A stretch of DNA of 38,899 nucleotides. Origin: Polyangium jinanense (lineage in GTDB: Bacteria; Myxococcota_A; Polyangia; Polyangiales; Polyangiaceae). Location of the stretch: NCBI RefSeq assembly GCF_028435265.1, contig NZ_JAGTJK010000012.1:1-38899 (forward strand), written 5' to 3'. Below, piece by piece: positions 5,250 to 29,445 of this stretch. The position numbers were made by a program, and so were the translations under genes. The notes below the pieces were generated by a model, which had not been told where the DNA came from, made no database searches, and saw nothing but the letters and a program-made list of their open reading frames with translations. Within the stretch, counting starts at the first letter, position 1. Each line of letters begins with the position of its first letter.

Positions 5250-9377
<4,128 letters not shown>

Positions 9378-9383
9378 TGCCGA

Positions 9384-13715
<4,332 letters not shown>

Positions 13716-13766
13716 GCTGCAGGGTAGGGGGGTCGTCGTCGCCGACGGCCTCCTGACCCCAAAGCC

Positions 13767-13810
13767 GCACGCCCGCCCTGTCTTCAGGCGCGGGCGTGCG
13801 CTTTTTGTTC
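13767..13810 (+). terminator. Rho-independent terminator of the rpoBC operon
   Basis: GCACGCCCGCC-ctgtcttcag-GCGCGGGCGTGC perfect GC-rich stem immediately followed by GCTTTTTGTTC. Confidence 0.85.
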
Positions 13811-13913
13811 GGCCAGGCACGCGCCGTCCCCTGTCGATCCGCCGGAGGACTGCTGCTTCGGCGGGTCTTGGGATACCCCGTCGTTGCGGACATGTACTAT
13901 CTCTGCACTCGCG

Positions 13914-16091
13914 ATGTCCGTGCTCGGCACCAACCAGCGTGTCGCTGATCGCCTGCTCTCCGACGGCCGGATCGCGGCCGAGGAGCATCGGCGCGCCGTG
14001 GATCACGCGAGCCGTCAGCGCGGCCGGATCGAGGATTCGCTCATCGAGCTCGACATCCTGCCCGAGGGAGATCTCCTCAAGTACGTCGCGACGCTGCACA
14101 ACACGCGGTTCGTCTCGACCGAAAAGCTCGCGAAGGCCGCGATCGAGCCGCGCGTGCTCGGACGCGTCTTGCCGAAGACCGCGAAGATGCACGGCGTCTT
14201 TCCGGTGCTGCTCGACGAGGCGAAGTCGGTGCTCTCCGTCGTCACCGCGGATCCCGACAACGACGCTGCGATCCACGAGGTGAAGCTCGCGGCGGGCGTG
14301 CGCGAAGTGCGCGCGCTCGTGGCTCGGCCGGCCGCGGTGCGCGCTGCGATCGCGCGGCATTACTTCAAGGAGGTTTCCGCCTTCGAGGCGCTCCTCCGTC
14401 CGGTCGCGACGAACGCCCAGACCGGCGACTTCATCGACATCGAGCTCGGCCCCGCGCCGGCGCGCCCTGCGACGGGGCCCATTCCTTCGCCGGCTGCGTC
14501 GCCGCGCAACCCGGGCGTGCAGGCGCCGCCGCCGCCGCGCGCGCCGATGCCCACGTCTCCCTCCGCGACCGGACAAACCAGCCCCACCGGCGCGCGTGAG
14601 CAGACGCAGCCCTCGGTGCACACGGGCAGCACACAGCCTTCCCTGAACGGCGGCCACGCGCCGATCACGGCGACCGCGCAGACGTCGCCGAGTGGAGGGC
14701 AACCGCCGACCACGCAGGTGCGTGCGTTGACGGGGACCGCGCCTTCGCCCACGCCGCCGCCGCCTCCGGTCCCGATCCTCACGCCGATCGAGACGCACGA
14801 GTACATCGAGACGCTCAACGTCCTCGTGAGCTTGCTCGAAGCGAACCGCCAGGATCTGCGTGGTCACTCGGCTGTCGTCGCGCGCCTCTGCCGCCGCACG
14901 TGCGAGCGCATCGGCCTCGCGCCTGCGCACGTCGCCGCGTTTGTCGTGGCTGCGTACCTGCACGATCTCGGCAAGATGGGCGCGTATCACCTCACCGCGC
15001 TGAACGTCGCCGAGTACGAGGGACATCGCGTCGCGGGCCTCAAGGCCGTCGCGCTCCCGGCGCAGCTCATGGGGTCCGTGGGCCTGCCGGCGGAGACCGT
15101 GGCCGCGCTCCAGGCCATGTACGAGCGGTACGATGGCCGCGGCTTGCCGCATGGCCTCGCGGGCAAGGAGATCCCGCTCGGCGCGCGTATCCTCGCCGTC
15201 GCGGACACCTACGCCGACCTCACGCAGAACCCGCGCAACCCCTTCCGCAAGATCCTCCGCCCGGCCGAGGCGTGCGACGTGCTCGCCGGGTATCGCGGCA
15301 CCGTCTTCGATCCGAACATCGTCGACCTCTTCCGTCACGAGGTCACGGGCGACGACATGCGCGCGCGGCTTTTGTCGGAGCGGTACACGGTGCTCGTCAT
15401 CGATCCGGATCCCGAGGAGACCACGGTGCTCGAGCTTCGCCTCATCGAGCAGGGCTTCGAAGTGCGCGTCGCGCGGACCGTGGCGCAGGCGTGGCGCGAG
15501 CTCGAAGGCGGCGAGATCGCGGCCGTCGTCAGCGAGATCGACCTCGAGGAGCCGGAGATGGGCCTCGCGCTCCGTGCCGACGCGCAGAAGGAGTCGTGGG
15601 GACGCGGGATCACGTGGGTGATCCTCACGCGCAAGAACGACCGCCACAGCGCGCAGAAGGCCTTTGATCTCGGCGTCGACGACTTCGTCTCGAAGCCGAC
15701 GTCCGCGGACATCTTCGCGGCAAAACTCCGTCAGCTCGTGGAGCGCCGTGTCGCGCGCGGCGGTGGGCGCGGCGTGACCGGATCGCTCGCGGAGATGAGC
15801 ATCCCGGACATGGTCCAGGTTCTCTGGCATGGCCGCAAGACGTGCGCGCTCCGGATCCAGACGGGCAAGGGCACGGGCGAGATCCACTTCGCCGAGGGGC
15901 AGGTCGTGGACGCGCGCTGGGAGCAGGTCGTCGGCGAAGAGGCCTTCTACCGGATGCTCGCGCTGAACGAGGGCGAGTTCCGGCTCGAACCGGGCGTCGA
16001 GCCTTCGGGGCGCACGATCGCCGTATCGCCCGAGGCGCTCTTGCTCGAAGGCATGCGCCGCCTCGACGAGGGCATGCTGCACGCTCCGTAA
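13914..16091 (+). CDS. Multidomain c-di-GMP-related signalling protein: MshEN (T2SSE_N) - Pro-rich linker - degenerate HD-GYP - REC - DUF4388
   Basis: N-terminus RVADRLLSDGRIAAEEHRRAV...RIEDSLIELDILPEGDLLKYVATLH fits the two tandem MshEN/GspE-N c-di-GMP-binding motifs. HD domain GHSAVVARL...LHDLGK. HD-GYP motif IV/V region reads MYERYDGRGLP instead of HHExxDGxGYP. Receiver-like segment YTVLVIDPDPEE...VVSEIDLEE...VILTR...VSKP. C-terminal SLAEMSIPDMVQVLWHGRKTCALRIQTGKGTGEIHFAEGQVVDA...GEFRLEPG matches DUF4388. Start uncertain (TTG 13884 opens the ORF; first ATG 13914). Confidence 0.85.
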   Translation: MSVLGTNQRVADRLLSDGRIAAEEHRRAVDHASRQRGRIEDSLIELDILPEGDLLKYVATLHNTRFVSTEKLAKAAIEPRVLGRVLPKTAKMHGVFPVLLDEAKSVLSVVTADPDNDAAIHEVKLAAGVREVRALVARPAAVRAAIARHYFKEVSAFEALLRPVATNAQTGDFIDIELGPAPARPATGPIPSPAASPRNPGVQAPPPPRAPMPTSPSATGQTSPTGAREQTQPSVHTGSTQPSLNGGHAPITATAQTSPSGGQPPTTQVRALTGTAPSPTPPPPPVPILTPIETHEYIETLNVLVSLLEANRQDLRGHSAVVARLCRRTCERIGLAPAHVAAFVVAAYLHDLGKMGAYHLTALNVAEYEGHRVAGLKAVALPAQLMGSVGLPAETVAALQAMYERYDGRGLPHGLAGKEIPLGARILAVADTYADLTQNPRNPFRKILRPAEACDVLAGYRGTVFDPNIVDLFRHEVTGDDMRARLLSERYTVLVIDPDPEETTVLELRLIEQGFEVRVARTVAQAWRELEGGEIAAVVSEIDLEEPEMGLALRADAQKESWGRGITWVILTRKNDRHSAQKAFDLGVDDFVSKPTSADIFAAKLRQLVERRVARGGGRGVTGSLAEMSIPDMVQVLWHGRKTCALRIQTGKGTGEIHFAEGQVVDARWEQVVGEEAFYRMLALNEGEFRLEPGVEPSGRTIAVSPEALLLEGMRRLDEGMLHAP

Positions 16092-16252
16092 GGGGCGTTT
16101 CCCCTCCGCTTTCTTTTGCGAATCTCCAGCCGTTGTCGGTCCGTGGAGCGTCGAGACGCGTAGAGTGAAAAGGCTACGCGCCTTCATGGGGGGTCGCGTA
16201 GCGGAAGCGTCCCTCGCTCGGCCTTGCCGGGCCCTTGCCTTGGAGGATCGTG

Positions 16253-17626
16253 ATGAAGCTCCTTCGCGCCCTCGCCTTGTCCTTGCCCTTCCTCGTGGTG
16301 CCCGCCCTCTACGCGACCGATTCGAATGCGTGTGGCGGGTGCTTCATCACCCAGCAGGAGACCACGCAGGTCACGGGCCACCGCATGGTTCTTTCGATCT
16401 CGAACGATCGGACGACCCTTTGGGATCAAATCACCTACGCGGGGGATCCGTCCTCGTTCGCGTGGCTCCTGCCGATCAAGGGGCAGGTCGACATCGGGCT
16501 CTCGTCCGACGCGGTCTTTGGCGCGCTCGAACAGGCCACACAGGTCTCGGTCCTCTCGCCCTCGATCAACTGCCTTCCGCCCGACTGCGTGGGCGCGCCG
16601 AGCGCGGGCGGCGACAACGACTCGGGCTCGGGCGGCGCGGGCGGCGGCGTCGAGGTCATCGCCGAGGAGGTCGTCGGCCCGTACGCGACCGTGCAGCTCT
16701 CGTCGCAGGATCCGAACGCGCTCGCGAACTGGCTGCTCTCGAACGGCTACAACATCCCGCCCGACATCAAGCCGATCGTCGACGCGTACGTGAACGAGGG
16801 CTTCGACTTCCTCGCCCTCAAGCTCGTGCCTGGCCAGGGCATCAACTCGATGCGCCCCGTGCGCGTCACCTCGCTCGGCGCGGTCCCGGTCCTGCCGCTG
16901 CGCATGGTCGCCGCGGGCACGGGCGCGCTCACGCCGATCACGCTCTGGGTCCTCGGCGAGGGCCGCTACGAGCCGACGAACTTCCCGAGCTTCCAGATCA
17001 AGCCCGCGGATCTCGTGTGGAACTGGGACACGCAATCGAGCAACTACAAGGACCTCAAGCAGCAGAGCTTCGACACGTCGGGCGGCAAGGCGTGGCTCGT
17101 CGAGGCGGGCGAGCCGCTCTCGCGTTACTGGATCGAGGACAATCTCAAATACACGGCCGAGTTCGACCCCGAGAACAGCGGCTACGGCGGCGATCCGATG
17201 GGCCCGAGCGCGCTCGAGGAATGCGTGGAGGACATGGCCGCGCTCTTCGGCGCGATCCCCGAAAACAACCTCTGGGTGACTCGCATCCACGCGGAGCTCT
17301 CGCGCGAGGCGCTGAAGACCGACCTCACGCTGGGCGCGTCGAACGACCAGTCGTACGTCGAGCGATGGCTCCAGGTCACGACCGCCGTCGGCACGCCGCC
17401 CGCGTGTCCGCCGCCGCCGGAGTGGTGCTCCGACCCGGGCGGGCCGATCACCGACCCCGACGTGAACCCCTGGGACAATGGCTTCGGCGTGGGCGAGGAC
17501 GACCCGAACCCGGGCTCGAAGAGCGCGGGCTGCGCCGTCGGCGGCGAGGCGGGCATGCCCGCGGCGCTCGGGCTCCTGGGCGGCGCGATGTTGCTTTCGG
17601 TCGCGCGCCGCCGTCGCCGCCGGTGA
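16253..17626 (+). CDS. Secreted cell-surface protein with MYXO-CTERM sorting signal (DUF2330-like)
   Basis: Signal peptide MKLLRALALSLPFLVVPALYA (GGAGG 7 nt upstream of ATG 16253). C-terminus SAGCAVGGEAGMPAALGLLGGAMLLSVARRRRRR has the Cys motif, hydrophobic span and Arg tail of the MYXO-CTERM tripartite signal. Body resembles DUF2330 family from memory (not verifiable here). Confidence 0.8.
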   Translation: MKLLRALALSLPFLVVPALYATDSNACGGCFITQQETTQVTGHRMVLSISNDRTTLWDQITYAGDPSSFAWLLPIKGQVDIGLSSDAVFGALEQATQVSVLSPSINCLPPDCVGAPSAGGDNDSGSGGAGGGVEVIAEEVVGPYATVQLSSQDPNALANWLLSNGYNIPPDIKPIVDAYVNEGFDFLALKLVPGQGINSMRPVRVTSLGAVPVLPLRMVAAGTGALTPITLWVLGEGRYEPTNFPSFQIKPADLVWNWDTQSSNYKDLKQQSFDTSGGKAWLVEAGEPLSRYWIEDNLKYTAEFDPENSGYGGDPMGPSALEECVEDMAALFGAIPENNLWVTRIHAELSREALKTDLTLGASNDQSYVERWLQVTTAVGTPPACPPPPEWCSDPGGPITDPDVNPWDNGFGVGEDDPNPGSKSAGCAVGGEAGMPAALGLLGGAMLLSVARRRRRR

Positions 17627-26560: not shown

Positions 26561-27718
26561 ATGGCGCGTACCCTCCCAACCTTGGCGATCAGGGTTCAGG
26601 GGAAAATCGGCGACAAATACGAGCTCTCCGCCGTCCTCGGAGAGGGGGCGATAGGCACGGTCTACGCCGCGAAGAACCTGCGAACCGGCCGGCGCGTGGC
26701 GATCAAGTCGCTGCGGGGGAGCGTCCTCGACCCGCGGGATCCCGAGCTTTTGCGCTTCGACCAGGAGGCGCGCATCGCGGGTTCGCTCGAATCGGAGCAC
26801 ATCGCCCAGGTGCTCGACATCGAGCGGGATCCCGCCACGGACGCCCCGTTCCTCGTGATGGAACTGCTCCGCGGGGAGGACCTGCAATCCCTCCTCGACA
26901 GGGTCGGCCCCTTGCCGGTCGACGTGGCTTTGCGGATCGCGGCGCAGGTTTGCGCGGGGCTCGCGGCGGCGCATGCGGCGGGCGTGGTGCATCGGGACAT
27001 CAAGCCCGGCAATCTCTTTCTCGCGCGGCGGGAAGGCGGCGCAATCGTGGTCAAGATCCTCGATTTCGGCCTCGCCAAGATCCGGCGCCTCCCGCCGGAT
27101 CTTTCCACGAGCGCCGCGCCTTCGGCCCTCTCGGCGCCGCAGCAGTCCATGACCGAGACGGGGCAGCTCCTCGGCTCGCCGCTTTACATGTCGCCGGAGC
27201 AGCTCGACGGCGCGAAAGGCATCGACGCACGCAGCGACCTGTTTTCGCTGGCGGTGACGCTGTTCGCGATGCTCACCGGAAAGCCGCCGCATGCGGACGT
27301 CAAATCGTTCCCCTTGCTGCTCAACCATATCGCGACGAAGCCGATGCCCACGGTGCGCGAGGTCGTGCCGGGGGTCGGCCCCGACGTGGAGGCGCTCCTC
27401 GAACGGGCGTCACGGCTTTCGCGTGAAGAACGGTTCTCCAGCGCGGCGGCGATGCGCGAAGCGATGAAGCCCCTCTTGCCGGGAGGCATGGCGCTGCGGG
27501 AGGACATGCTCGTCGGCCGCAGGGACGCGTCCAGCGAGGTGGGCATGACCCACATGGAGAGCGATTCGTACGCCATGATCGAGCGCGCGGTGGCCGAGGA
27601 ACGGGCCCCGACGGAGGCGACGGTCTCGTCGCGCCCCCGGCGATGGCCTGTGTGGCTCGGGATCGCCGTCGTCCTGGTGGCGGCGGTCGTGATGGCCCTC
27701 GGGCTCCTTGGGCGCTAA
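26561..27718 (+). CDS. Ser/Thr protein kinase with C-terminal transmembrane anchor
   Basis: Hanks kinase motifs: GEGAIGTVYAA, AIK, HRDIKPGNLFL, DFGLAK, SPEQ. C-terminal WPVWLGIAVVLVAAVVMALGLLGR TM helix. Confidence 0.9.
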   Translation: MARTLPTLAIRVQGKIGDKYELSAVLGEGAIGTVYAAKNLRTGRRVAIKSLRGSVLDPRDPELLRFDQEARIAGSLESEHIAQVLDIERDPATDAPFLVMELLRGEDLQSLLDRVGPLPVDVALRIAAQVCAGLAAAHAAGVVHRDIKPGNLFLARREGGAIVVKILDFGLAKIRRLPPDLSTSAAPSALSAPQQSMTETGQLLGSPLYMSPEQLDGAKGIDARSDLFSLAVTLFAMLTGKPPHADVKSFPLLLNHIATKPMPTVREVVPGVGPDVEALLERASRLSREERFSSAAAMREAMKPLLPGGMALREDMLVGRRDASSEVGMTHMESDSYAMIERAVAEERAPTEATVSSRPRRWPVWLGIAVVLVAAVVMALGLLGR

Positions 27719-27726
27719 GGAGGGGC

Positions 27727-29445
27727 ATGAACCAGCGGGAAATCCTTGCTTTTATCGACCGGCTCCGGAAGGCGAGGACCTTCGAGGACGCCGCGCACAC
27801 CTTGCTGCGCGCGATGCTCGACGCGGCGCTCGCGGCGCTCGCGGAGAGCGGCTTCGCCGGCCGCGGCAAGATCCTCCGCGGCATGGCGCACTGGCGGCCC
27901 GGCGACGGCTACCGGCGACTGGTCCTTCTCGACGATACGCAGCGCGGCGGCGAGCCGACCATCAACTATTTGCCCTCCGTGAGCGCGTGGCGCTGGGTCG
28001 TCACGCGCGAATGCCCCATTGCGATCGACGTCCCGCTCGGTCGCGTATGGACGTGGCAAAACGAATCCGCGAACCTGTTCCAGGAGGGCGGATTTTCCGG
28101 TCAGGACAGCGTGCTTCGGCTGACGAGCCGCGACACGAGCCACCTCTACGCGATCCCGCTGCGCACCCTGCACGGCGCGATCGAGGGAATGGCCACGGTC
28201 GAGGCGGGGTGCCCGAGGGCCGTCGGCGACGATTTCATCTTCCCGGCCATTCACGAATCACTGGAGCTCCTCGCCGACCTCGCGGCGCCTTACCTCGCGA
28301 CCCTTCCGCCCCGGCCCGCGGCGACTGGCGCGACCGACGATCTCTTGCCCGTCATGGGCCAGAGCATGGCGGGCTTGATCGACATGCTCCGCGTCTTCGC
28401 GCAGCAGGAGGAGACCCTGCTCATCGGCGGTCCCACGGGTGCGGGCAAATCGCGCCTCGCGCGCTGGTGCCACGCGCGATCGGTCCGGCGTGAGGCGCCC
28501 TTCGAGGTCCTCGACCTCATCGCCGTGCCCGAAGAGCTGCAAATGGCGGAGCTCTTCGGCTGGAAAAAGGGCGCGTTCACGGGCGCGGTGCGCGACACGC
28601 CCGGGTGCATCACGCGGGCCTTCAAGGGGACGTTGTTCATCGACGAGATCGACAAACTCTCGCTGAAGGCGCAGGCGGGATTGCTCCAGCTCCTCGAATC
28701 GCGCACGTATCGCCCGATCGGGGACGGCGCGCGCGAGCAGCAGGCGAACGTGCGTTTCATCGTGGGGAGCAACGTCGACCTGTACGACCAGGTGAAGGCC
28801 GGACGGTTCCGGGAGGATCTTTATTATCGGATCAACGTGCTCCCGGTGCAGATCCCCCCGCTCGACGAGCGCCGGGACGAAATTGCGGAATGGGCGCGCT
28901 TCATGGCCTCGAGGCGCCATCGCGAATCGGTGCCGGGCGGGGAAGCGCGGATCGCGGCGGGCGTGGAGACGCTTCTCGGTGAGCATGCCTGGCCGGGCAA
29001 TTTGCGTCAGCTCGACAACGTCGTTCGCCGGGCCTATGCGCTCGCGCTCATGACGCACGGTGAGGCAGGGTCGGAGATCTTGCTGGAGGAAAAGCATTTC
29101 GCGCGCGCCCTGAGCTACGAGCGGGGGAGCGGGCGAAGGTCGACGCTCGACGACCTGCGCGTCGCGGCGGGCGCGATCGTGGAAGAGGCCGAGCGGCAGC
29201 AGGGAAAGGGCCTCGTGTTCGACCTGGATCTCTGCGATGCATTCCGCGGCCTCGTGCTCGGCACGGCGGTGGAGCGGCTCGGTAGCCGGGACGCGGCGTT
29301 CCGGCTTTTCGGGAAGGGCGCGCAGGTGCAGGCGCGCAATCACCACAAGATGCTGCGGCGCGAGCTGGAGAAGGTCGAGGCGCTTTGCAAGGCGCTCGGG
29401 GAGGAGAGCGGGCCCTTTCGGGAGCTGAGGGACGACGAGGCCTGA
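27727..29445 (+). CDS. Sigma-54-dependent transcriptional activator (bacterial enhancer-binding protein) with GAF-like N-terminal sensor domain
   Basis: Walker A GGPTGAGKS, GAFTGA sigma-54 contact loop (KGAFTGA), Walker B LFIDEID, arginine finger region REDLYYRINV. Perfect SD AAGGAGGGG immediately before ATG 27727. Starts 9 nt after the kinase stop. Confidence 0.9.
   Translation: MNQREILAFIDRLRKARTFEDAAHTLLRAMLDAALAALAESGFAGRGKILRGMAHWRPGDGYRRLVLLDDTQRGGEPTINYLPSVSAWRWVVTRECPIAIDVPLGRVWTWQNESANLFQEGGFSGQDSVLRLTSRDTSHLYAIPLRTLHGAIEGMATVEAGCPRAVGDDFIFPAIHESLELLADLAAPYLATLPPRPAATGATDDLLPVMGQSMAGLIDMLRVFAQQEETLLIGGPTGAGKSRLARWCHARSVRREAPFEVLDLIAVPEELQMAELFGWKKGAFTGAVRDTPGCITRAFKGTLFIDEIDKLSLKAQAGLLQLLESRTYRPIGDGAREQQANVRFIVGSNVDLYDQVKAGRFREDLYYRINVLPVQIPPLDERRDEIAEWARFMASRRHRESVPGGEARIAAGVETLLGEHAWPGNLRQLDNVVRRAYALALMTHGEAGSEILLEEKHFARALSYERGSGRRSTLDDLRVAAGAIVEEAERQQGKGLVFDLDLCDAFRGLVLGTAVERLGSRDAAFRLFGKGAQVQARNHHKMLRRELEKVEALCKALGEESGPFRELRDDEA

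Follow-up and report, generated by a model that had tools for sequence, protein, structure and literature searches.

What can a bacterial protein still sense, hydrolyse or relay when it joins an MshEN-like domain, an HD-GYP-like domain, a receiver (REC) and a DUF4388 domain, the latter being the PATAN domain, in a single chain? This question is raised by a gene that lies directly downstream of rpoC in a 38,899-nt stretch of Polyangium jinanense DNA (GCF_028435265.1, contig NZ_JAGTJK010000012.1, positions 1–38,899, forward strand), hereafter the window. A preliminary description of the window had presented its product as a cyclic di-GMP (c-di-GMP) receptor of undescribed architecture that integrates two-component input. 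We find that the protein is a Polyangiaceae-type member of a known, functionally uncharacterised and Myxococcota-specific family, the MXAN_2807 family. In the reading that we favour, at about an even chance, it is a cytoplasmic, non-catalytic signalling adaptor with the REC domain as input and PATAN as protein-interaction output.

The reading frame and its four reported domains are real. Two starts share the stop that ends at 16091 on the plus strand, TTG 13884 and ATG 13914, and the ATG is favoured by orthologue N-termini that begin within a few residues of it. A Pfam scan, the check that the preliminary description had proposed, placed all four domains above the curated cut-offs (MshEN 73–150, HD_5/HD 303–469, Response_reg 493–601, DUF4388 622–719), and the same five Pfam domains occur on 120/120 of the best database matches. 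One of these, the Polyangium jinanense protein P0001, carries the annotation 'DUF4388 domain-containing protein' and shows 100% identity to the window protein. An AlphaFold2 (AF2) model that spans the whole protein, built on 27 homologues, contains four confidently folded blocks (7–163, 290–480, 490–615 and 626–720). The linker between the first two blocks (~127 aa, 71% Pro/Ala/Ser/Thr/Gly) has this length only in the genus Polyangium and comprises ~50 aa in most other Polyangiaceae orthologues.

The architecture itself turned out to be on record. M. xanthus MXAN_2807 is entered in Supplementary Table 4 of Wang et al. 2016 as 'MshEN - HD-GYP - REC - DUF4388', its distribution being given as 'Myxococcales' (the table prints locus tag 2809, and its accession ABF87190 is that of MXAN_2807), and Skotnicka et al. 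2016 noted that MXAN_2807 has an HD-GYP domain lacking several conserved residues. Given these two reports and the shared homologues, both the architecture and the degenerate HD-GYP domain were already known, and the claim of novelty falls. MXAN_2807 (ABF87190), Stigmatella STAU_5245 and Archangium WP_047858806 have the same four domains in the same order as the window protein. They also share with it the signature LL[KR][FY]LA..x.TRFVS.[ED]KLAKA, the replacement of HHE by [M/L]-Y-E and the loss of the GYP tyrosine. MXAN_2807 does not figure among the mutants described as important for development, and the supplements of the CdbA c-di-GMP-receptor paper do not mention it.

Full-length comparison with MXAN_2807 was made through the Archangium protein P0255 as a proxy, and MXAN_2807 itself was compared by its published 74-aa N-terminus (39% identity). 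BLASTP against P0255 gave 31% identity over 292–693 (8e-54) and 36% over 8–160 (4e-27), with homology to this Archangium member running collinearly through all four domains; identity to Cystobacterineae members is only 31–39%. An exhaustive search placed at least 319 clusters (50% identity) of the family in Myxococcota at E<=1e-30. Among the best database matches, all named ones are from Myxococcota apart from one close homologue, P0110, labelled 'Candidatus Nanopelagicales bacterium' (an actinobacterial metagenome-assembled genome), a label that is probably a binning error. Membership in the RpfG family, in which REC stands N-terminal to HD-GYP, was considered and rejected: the HD-GYP match (303–469) precedes that of REC (493–601), which makes the JGI label 'RpfG family' on homologues a loose one.

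To locate the active-site positions, we aligned the HD-GYP-like domain with HMMER to four HD-GYP references of solved structure: PA4781 (4r8z), V-cGAP3 (5z7c), PmGH (4mcw) and DvhD (9rbz). In all four alignments M402-Y403-E404 falls on HHE and G410-L411-P412 on GYP, so that the HHE-to-MYE and GYP-to-GLP replacements noted in the preliminary description hold without a shift of register. Motif I and the HD dyad, also read there as intact, are indeed kept (H318 and H350-D351 align with the solved domains), as are K354, H371 and D431 at other ligand positions. H318, H350, D351 and D431 correspond to H189, H221, D222 and D305 of PmGH and are invariant in the Polyangiaceae orthologues; the equivalent of PmGH D308 is Ala. 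Either mutation, H276A or H277A, leaves PmGH with essentially no activity (PMC4159591), and His is absent from both positions in the window protein and in 73/73 orthologues, which upholds the predicted loss of canonical phosphodiesterase (PDE) activity. Alanine substitutions in the GYP motif of PmGH caused no substantial drop in activity (PMC4159591).

The 'lid' loop of the domain is altered as well. The spacing from HDxGK to the next His is 17 residues in the window protein versus 25 in PmGH, PA4781, V-cGAP3 and DvhD, and the 17-residue K354–H371 spacing recurs in 98/119 full-length family representatives, making the 8-residue lid deletion a family-wide trait. Lost with it is the KPG motif, which holds the second guanine (Gua2) of c-di-GMP (Galperin and Chou, bioRxiv 10.1101/2021.11.05.467447). 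An RxxY[K/R]-type Gua1-binding motif is present (R441-N-P-F444-R445) and is spaced as the RHAYR of PA4781. The shortened loop carries H359-L-T361, a motif that is absent from canonical HD-GYPs and may provide a substitute ligand.

Conservation of the altered site is high. MYE is invariant in 73/73 Polyangiaceae orthologues, and across the 119 representatives the first HHE histidine position is occupied by Met (56) or Leu (43) and the second by Tyr (109), giving [M/L]-Y-E in 99. This pattern argues that the change is not random decay. Elsewhere in the pocket the counts are 119/119 for H318, 118/119 for H350, 108/119 for D351, 116/119 for H359, 109/119 each for T361 and Y403, and 117/119 for E404, with G410 and P412 nearly invariant; H371, the equivalent of PmGH H250, is found in only 78/119. 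Taken together, the in-register replacement of HHE and GYP, the PmGH mutants and the lost KPG lid make it a well-supported reading of the sequence that the HD-GYP-like domain very probably lacks canonical c-di-GMP phosphodiesterase activity.

The strongest rival to the adaptor reading assigns a sensory role to this same domain. It would bind c-di-GMP, pGpG or cGAMP without hydrolysis, in the manner of DvhD from Desulfovibrio vulgaris (9RBZ/9RC0), and binding would trigger dimerisation or a conformational change relayed to REC and PATAN. DvhD (HD replaced by SQ, HH by MN) binds c-di-GMP with sub-micromolar affinity, does not hydrolyse it and dimerises on binding; its non-hydrolytic role is proven, that of the window protein predicted. 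The two domains match by sequence (E=2.9e-8) and by fold, both have Met at the first His position (MN in DvhD, MY here), and in both the helix with the last metal ligand is followed by conserved Arg and aromatic residues. When we compared the c-di-GMP contacts of DvhD (Y621, L577, K582, M646, R650, Y652 and E668), M646, R650, Y652 and R653 corresponded to L436, R441, F444 and R445, which are conserved, and K354 is retained. Strong purifying selection on the pocket also speaks for a sensor.

Other contacts count against it. The GYP tyrosine, a phosphate contact in DvhD (Y621) and PmGH, is Leu in the window protein and Phe in most of the MXAN_2807 family, E668 aligns with R461, and the lid residues that would hold the second guanine are deleted. 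The two proteins differ in what they have lost besides the double His: DvhD has lost the HD metal site and kept the GYP tyrosine and a full-length KPG lid, whereas the window protein has kept HD and lost both others. A further difference is that DvhD is membrane-bound (dCache-PAS-HD-GYP) and controls a protease in the periplasm. We regard a DvhD-like sensor as a realistic possibility, though a clearly minor one.

Dead HD-GYP domains that act through interactions rather than hydrolysis are known from HnoD (Shewanella) and ECA3548 (Pectobacterium), both with altered HHE/HD motifs. ECA3548 (PilZN-PilZ plus a dead HD-GYP) pairs the inactive domain with a dedicated c-di-GMP-binding domain. Their substitutions (SE/QLE in HnoD, HT/ANE in ECA3548) and their partner domains differ from those of the window protein, and both are without the 8-residue lid deletion and without a PATAN output.

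It is also conceivable, if quite unlikely, that the domain is a remodelled metal-dependent hydrolase in which H359 and Y403 replace the lost His ligands and which acts on a substrate other than c-di-GMP or by another mechanism. All residues of the classical mononuclear HD site (H, HD, D) are present, and the conservation of H318, H350, D351, H359, Y403 and E404 across ~119 divergent representatives is easier to reconcile with a metal or ligand site under maintenance than with neutral decay. Such an enzyme would nevertheless be a hydrolytic [M/L]-Y-E HD-GYP, for which there is no precedent, and it would have to work without the two His whose single replacement by Ala (H276A, H277A) kills PmGH, with Ala in place of D308 and with an H371 position that is kept in only 78/119 representatives.

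The N-terminal domain was the basis for the proposed c-di-GMP receptor. Its four helices (9–16, 22–35, 39–45 and 51–62 in the AF2 model) are homologous to MshEN/GSPII helices (PilF, E=1.5e-10; M. xanthus PilB, E=1.8e-6), and the adjoining residues 64–163 are modelled at a predicted local distance difference test (pLDDT) score of ~90, with the GSPII-A domain of PilF (9g1w) as Foldseek match. The Pfam MshEN match (73–150) covers only the C-terminal subdomain, without the c-di-GMP-binding helices, and therefore carries no information on them. Residues 7–62 of V. cholerae MshE align to residues 7–62 of the window protein, so that both numberings coincide.

Judged by the key residues and the relaxed search pattern of Wang et al. 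2016, non-conservative replacements affect five of the 12 key positions (G11A, L25H, Q32A, G40E and Q61L), and I19R and G47D are further changes. Motif I thus reads RVA...H25...A32 and motif II RIE...D47...L61, and the relaxed pattern fits neither, while V. cholerae MshE fits it twice. The protein does keep R9, R38 and L54, as well as hydrophobic positions 10, 29, 39 and 58. In 70 Polyangiaceae orthologues, Gly never occurs at position 11 or 40, nor Gln at 32 or 61; position 11 is L, V, A or I in this set and position 40 invariably Glu. Of the two tandem c-di-GMP-binding MshEN motifs that had been reported, the MshEN/GSPII fold stands and the motifs do not, since both glycines and both glutamines are replaced.

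Comparable replacements are known from MshEN folds that do not bind c-di-GMP, namely PilF GSPII-A (Thermus thermophilus, 9G1W) and the XpsE/GspE N-domain (Xanthomonas). In XpsE, substitutions of this type account for the absence of binding; in PilF GSPII-A, a single Ala at a Gly position costs 10–30-fold in affinity (PMC12002112); and FrgA (RLA/QVD changes) stands in the non-binding column of Wang et al. The kinds of change agree with those in GSPII-A and XpsE: a bulkier residue for Gly, loss of Gln and, in XpsE, the same I19R. GSPII-A is the best match of the window domain by both sequence and fold; the window protein deviates at more positions than GSPII-A, motif I included. PilF and XpsE carry the domain as the N-terminal module of secretion or pilus ATPases, whereas here it is fused to signalling domains without an ATPase.

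A protein in which the MshEN domain serves as a high-affinity c-di-GMP receptor, and which integrates c-di-GMP with two-component phosphorylation, is for these reasons improbable. In its favour are the true homology to MshEN/GSPII, the retained residues listed above and the relatives MXAN_2807 and Archangium P0255. These Myxococcus-type proteins have near-canonical motifs (RLG...Q, KVG/RLG) and are predicted c-di-GMP binders, but the motifs are lost in the window protein and in all Polyangiaceae orthologues. Losses at both Gly (A11, E40) and both Gln (A32, L61), together with L25H, I19R and G47D, the failure of the relaxed pattern in both halves and the precedents of XpsE and PilF GSPII-A weigh against this receptor. 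Canonical c-di-GMP binding at the window MshEN domain is unlikely on these motifs, and the receptor claim, which rested on them, is not sustained.

The REC domain, by comparison with the HD-GYP-like and MshEN-like domains, keeps its phospho-acceptor triad. Alignment to solved receivers puts D543 on the phospho-acceptor Asp, T572 on the Thr/Ser position and K594 on the conserved Lys, and the triad that had been described is thereby confirmed; in the orthologues these residues are found in 61/73, 69/73 and 72/73, respectively. The REC domain of the Archangium member differs: Asp and Lys are missing, and its Pfam score stays below the threshold. At the C-terminus, DUF4388 (PF14332) matches with 5.7e-26 over profile positions 1–120 of 122, in line with its earlier designation as the output domain, a role that is plausible (Pfam 622–719). 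The PATAN domain is the output domain of cyanobacterial PatA-type regulators and binds the N-terminal, MshEN-type region of PilB as well as PilC (bioRxiv 10.1101/2021.06.11.447907). As in PatA, PixG, PixE and LsiR of cyanobacteria, REC and PATAN are neighbours in the window protein. Unlike in these PatA-type regulators, PATAN has no alpha-helical insertion and two extra domains lie upstream; membership in the PatA family was rejected because PATAN is C-terminal to REC in a four-domain protein. Deletion of MXAN_2807 left type IV pilus motility normal (Skotnicka et al.), and the link of PATAN to pili stems from PatA-type proteins, not from the MXAN_2807 family.

As a non-catalytic adaptor, the window protein would not hydrolyse c-di-GMP. 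The REC phospho-acceptor would be the only canonical input site left, for which reason the protein would act as an orphan response regulator. The surroundings of the gene are in keeping with this: no kinase or conserved functional partner was found near it, and no histidine kinase adjoins it in the window or is among the conserved neighbours of the orthologues, although a distant one may exist. Phosphorylation at D543 would then change how the adjacent PATAN domain engages partner proteins, PATAN being the presumed output by analogy with PatA-type regulators. The remodelled HD-GYP-like domain would probably serve as a dimerisation or ligand-sensing module, and the MshEN-like domain probably offers a protein–protein interaction surface that no longer senses c-di-GMP.

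Several observations weigh against the adaptor reading. The REC acidic pair is D497-P498-D499 rather than the canonical DD, with Pro at the second canonical position; D499, present in 73/73 orthologues, may substitute for the second acidic residue. The phospho-acceptor Asp occurs in only 59/119 family representatives, which indicates that phosphorylation is not a family-wide requirement, and is Glu in 23/119, a change that may be phosphomimetic. The order of REC and PATAN is the reverse of that in PatA, and the whole-chain AF2 model (predicted template-modelling score 0.36) did not place the domains relative to one another with confidence. The near-invariance of H318, H350, D351, H359, Y403 and E404 suggests a pocket that may still bind metal or a ligand, in which case the HD-GYP-like domain would have a larger role than that of a 'scaffold'. 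Deletion of MXAN_2807 left growth and motility unaffected (Skotnicka et al.), so that the adaptor reading has no functional anchor.

Variation within the family permits a broader proposal, which we consider unlikely overall: the HD-GYP-like pocket, with its [M/L]-Y-E loop, its shortened lid bearing H359-L-T361 and its retained HD metal site and RxxYR motif, would be no dead relic but new in function, sensing or hydrolysing some ligand that is not c-di-GMP, and the accessory input would have been swapped across Myxococcota. As far as can be judged from motif patterns, the Myxococcus-type branch may combine a c-di-GMP-competent MshEN with a pseudo-receiver, and the Polyangia-type branch, including the window gene, may combine a phosphorylatable receiver with a c-di-GMP-blind MshEN. 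Both MshEN glycines are kept in 20/119 representatives, including the Myxococcus/Archangium type, and neither in 89/119, including the window protein. An intact MshEN and an intact REC triad show a weak inverse association (4/16 vs 47/52, Fisher p=0.027, uncorrected for phylogeny). A strict reciprocal rule, by which an intact MshEN implies a degenerate REC and the reverse, was rejected: both sites are degenerate in 52 representatives, which leaves a trend only.

The position of the gene next to rpoBC is incidental. The rpoC stop lies at 13715 and the gene 198 bp downstream on the same strand. The terminator that the preliminary description had placed between the two was found, as a strong GC-rich hairpin (13767–13799) followed by TTTTT (13802–13806), and the 198-nt intergenic region as a whole is far more stably folded than its shuffled versions (z = -4.64). 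Adjacency to rpoC is confined to the genus Polyangium (L001–L004, the four Polyangium genomes), and rpoC was found within 6 kb at none of ~65 other orthologue loci; in >40 other Polyangiaceae loci the gene is divergent from rplM-rpsI, argC and uvrB. The placement that had been called atypical is thus a feature of four genomes. That a translation or transcription operon adjoins the gene in both arrangements is probably coincidence. Functional coupling to rpoBC, through co-transcription or regulation of RNA polymerase, has the short same-strand distance in its favour, is contradicted by the intervening terminator and effectively refuted by the lack of conserved synteny, and we reject it as having next to no chance of being correct.

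The features of the locus are collected in Table 1. A second, 12-bp GC-rich hairpin (13836–13867), distinct from the rpoC terminator, lies in the leader ~46 nt upstream of ATG 13914 and may represent an element of the 5'-UTR or else another terminator, one that has no T-run. A sigma-70 promoter scan of the intergenic region found nothing, a result that is uninformative for myxobacteria.

Table 1. Coordinates of the gene, its domains and the preceding terminator in the window
Feature	Position (nt)	Strand	Basis
Coding sequence of the MshEN-like/HD-GYP-like/REC/PATAN protein, 725 aa	13914..16091, stop codon included	+	ORF (open reading frame) list, Pfam domains, 100% identical annotated protein
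MshEN_N-like four-helix subdomain (residues 7–63) with two degenerate 24-residue motifs, R9..A32 and R38..L61	13932..14102	+	
MshEN_C (GSPII/N1E-like) alpha/beta subdomain (residues 64–163) with family signature TRFVSTEKLAKA	14103..14402	+	Pfam 73–150
Disordered Pro/Ala/Ser/Thr/Gly-rich linker (residues 164–289)	14403..14780	+	pLDDT ~30
Degenerate HD-GYP-like domain (residues 290–480)	14781..15353	+	Pfam HD_5 2.2e-21; PDB matches PA4781, V-cGAP3, DvhD, PmGH
Shortened 'lid' loop K354–H371, without KPG, with conserved H359-L-T361	14973..15026	+	Family spacing comparison
M402-Y403-E404...G410-L411-P412 loop in place of HHExxDGxGYP	15117..15149	+	In-register alignments
Receiver (REC, residues 490–615); D543 at 15540–15542	15381..15758	+	Pfam Response_reg 2.7e-10, alignment to solved receivers
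DUF4388/PATAN (residues 622–720), without alpha-helical insertion	15777..16073	+	
Intrinsic-terminator-like hairpin and T-run ending the rpoBC unit (context only)	13767..13809	+	Fold analysis

The gene order in the window is tuf-secE-nusG-rplKAJL-rpoBC, the gene discussed here, a gene for a DUF2330 protein, panB and then unrelated genes. The DUF2330 protein (16235–17626, 463 aa) has a C-terminal GCAVGG...RRRRRR tail that matches the MYXO-CTERM sorting domain just below the cut-off (19.6 vs 20 bits). A 2476-aa minus-strand frame (8757–16187), antisense to rpoC and to the gene, is an artefact of ~68% G+C and codon bias. Further downstream, a gene for a sigma-54 activator (27643–29445) directly follows and slightly overlaps a Ser/Thr kinase gene (26561–27718), a pairing typical of myxobacteria; the N-terminal region of the activator (~240 aa) has no domain assignment. 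At the non-Polyangium loci (L006–L072, e.g. L010:2451-5619), a conserved 273-aa protein without a Pfam match is encoded downstream of the orthologue in 32 loci, and a Ser/Thr kinase gene occurs in 18.

In summary, the feature noted in the preliminary description is real and for the most part well described; it overreached on novelty and on the function of MshEN. In place of the new class of c-di-GMP receptor that it implied stands a catalogued, functionally uncharacterised Myxococcota family. For annotators, c-di-GMP binding should not be read from a Pfam 'MshEN' match, which extends over the C-terminal subdomain alone, and the labels 'RpfG family c-di-GMP phosphodiesterase' and 'HD domain-containing phosphohydrolase' are probably wrong on activity for proteins of this family. 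The family-wide [M/L]-Y-E loop and lid deletion, together with the lineage-specific loss of the MshEN motifs, predict which branch should bind c-di-GMP and which domain to examine, and the residue tables offer concrete hypotheses for work on MXAN_2807-type proteins.

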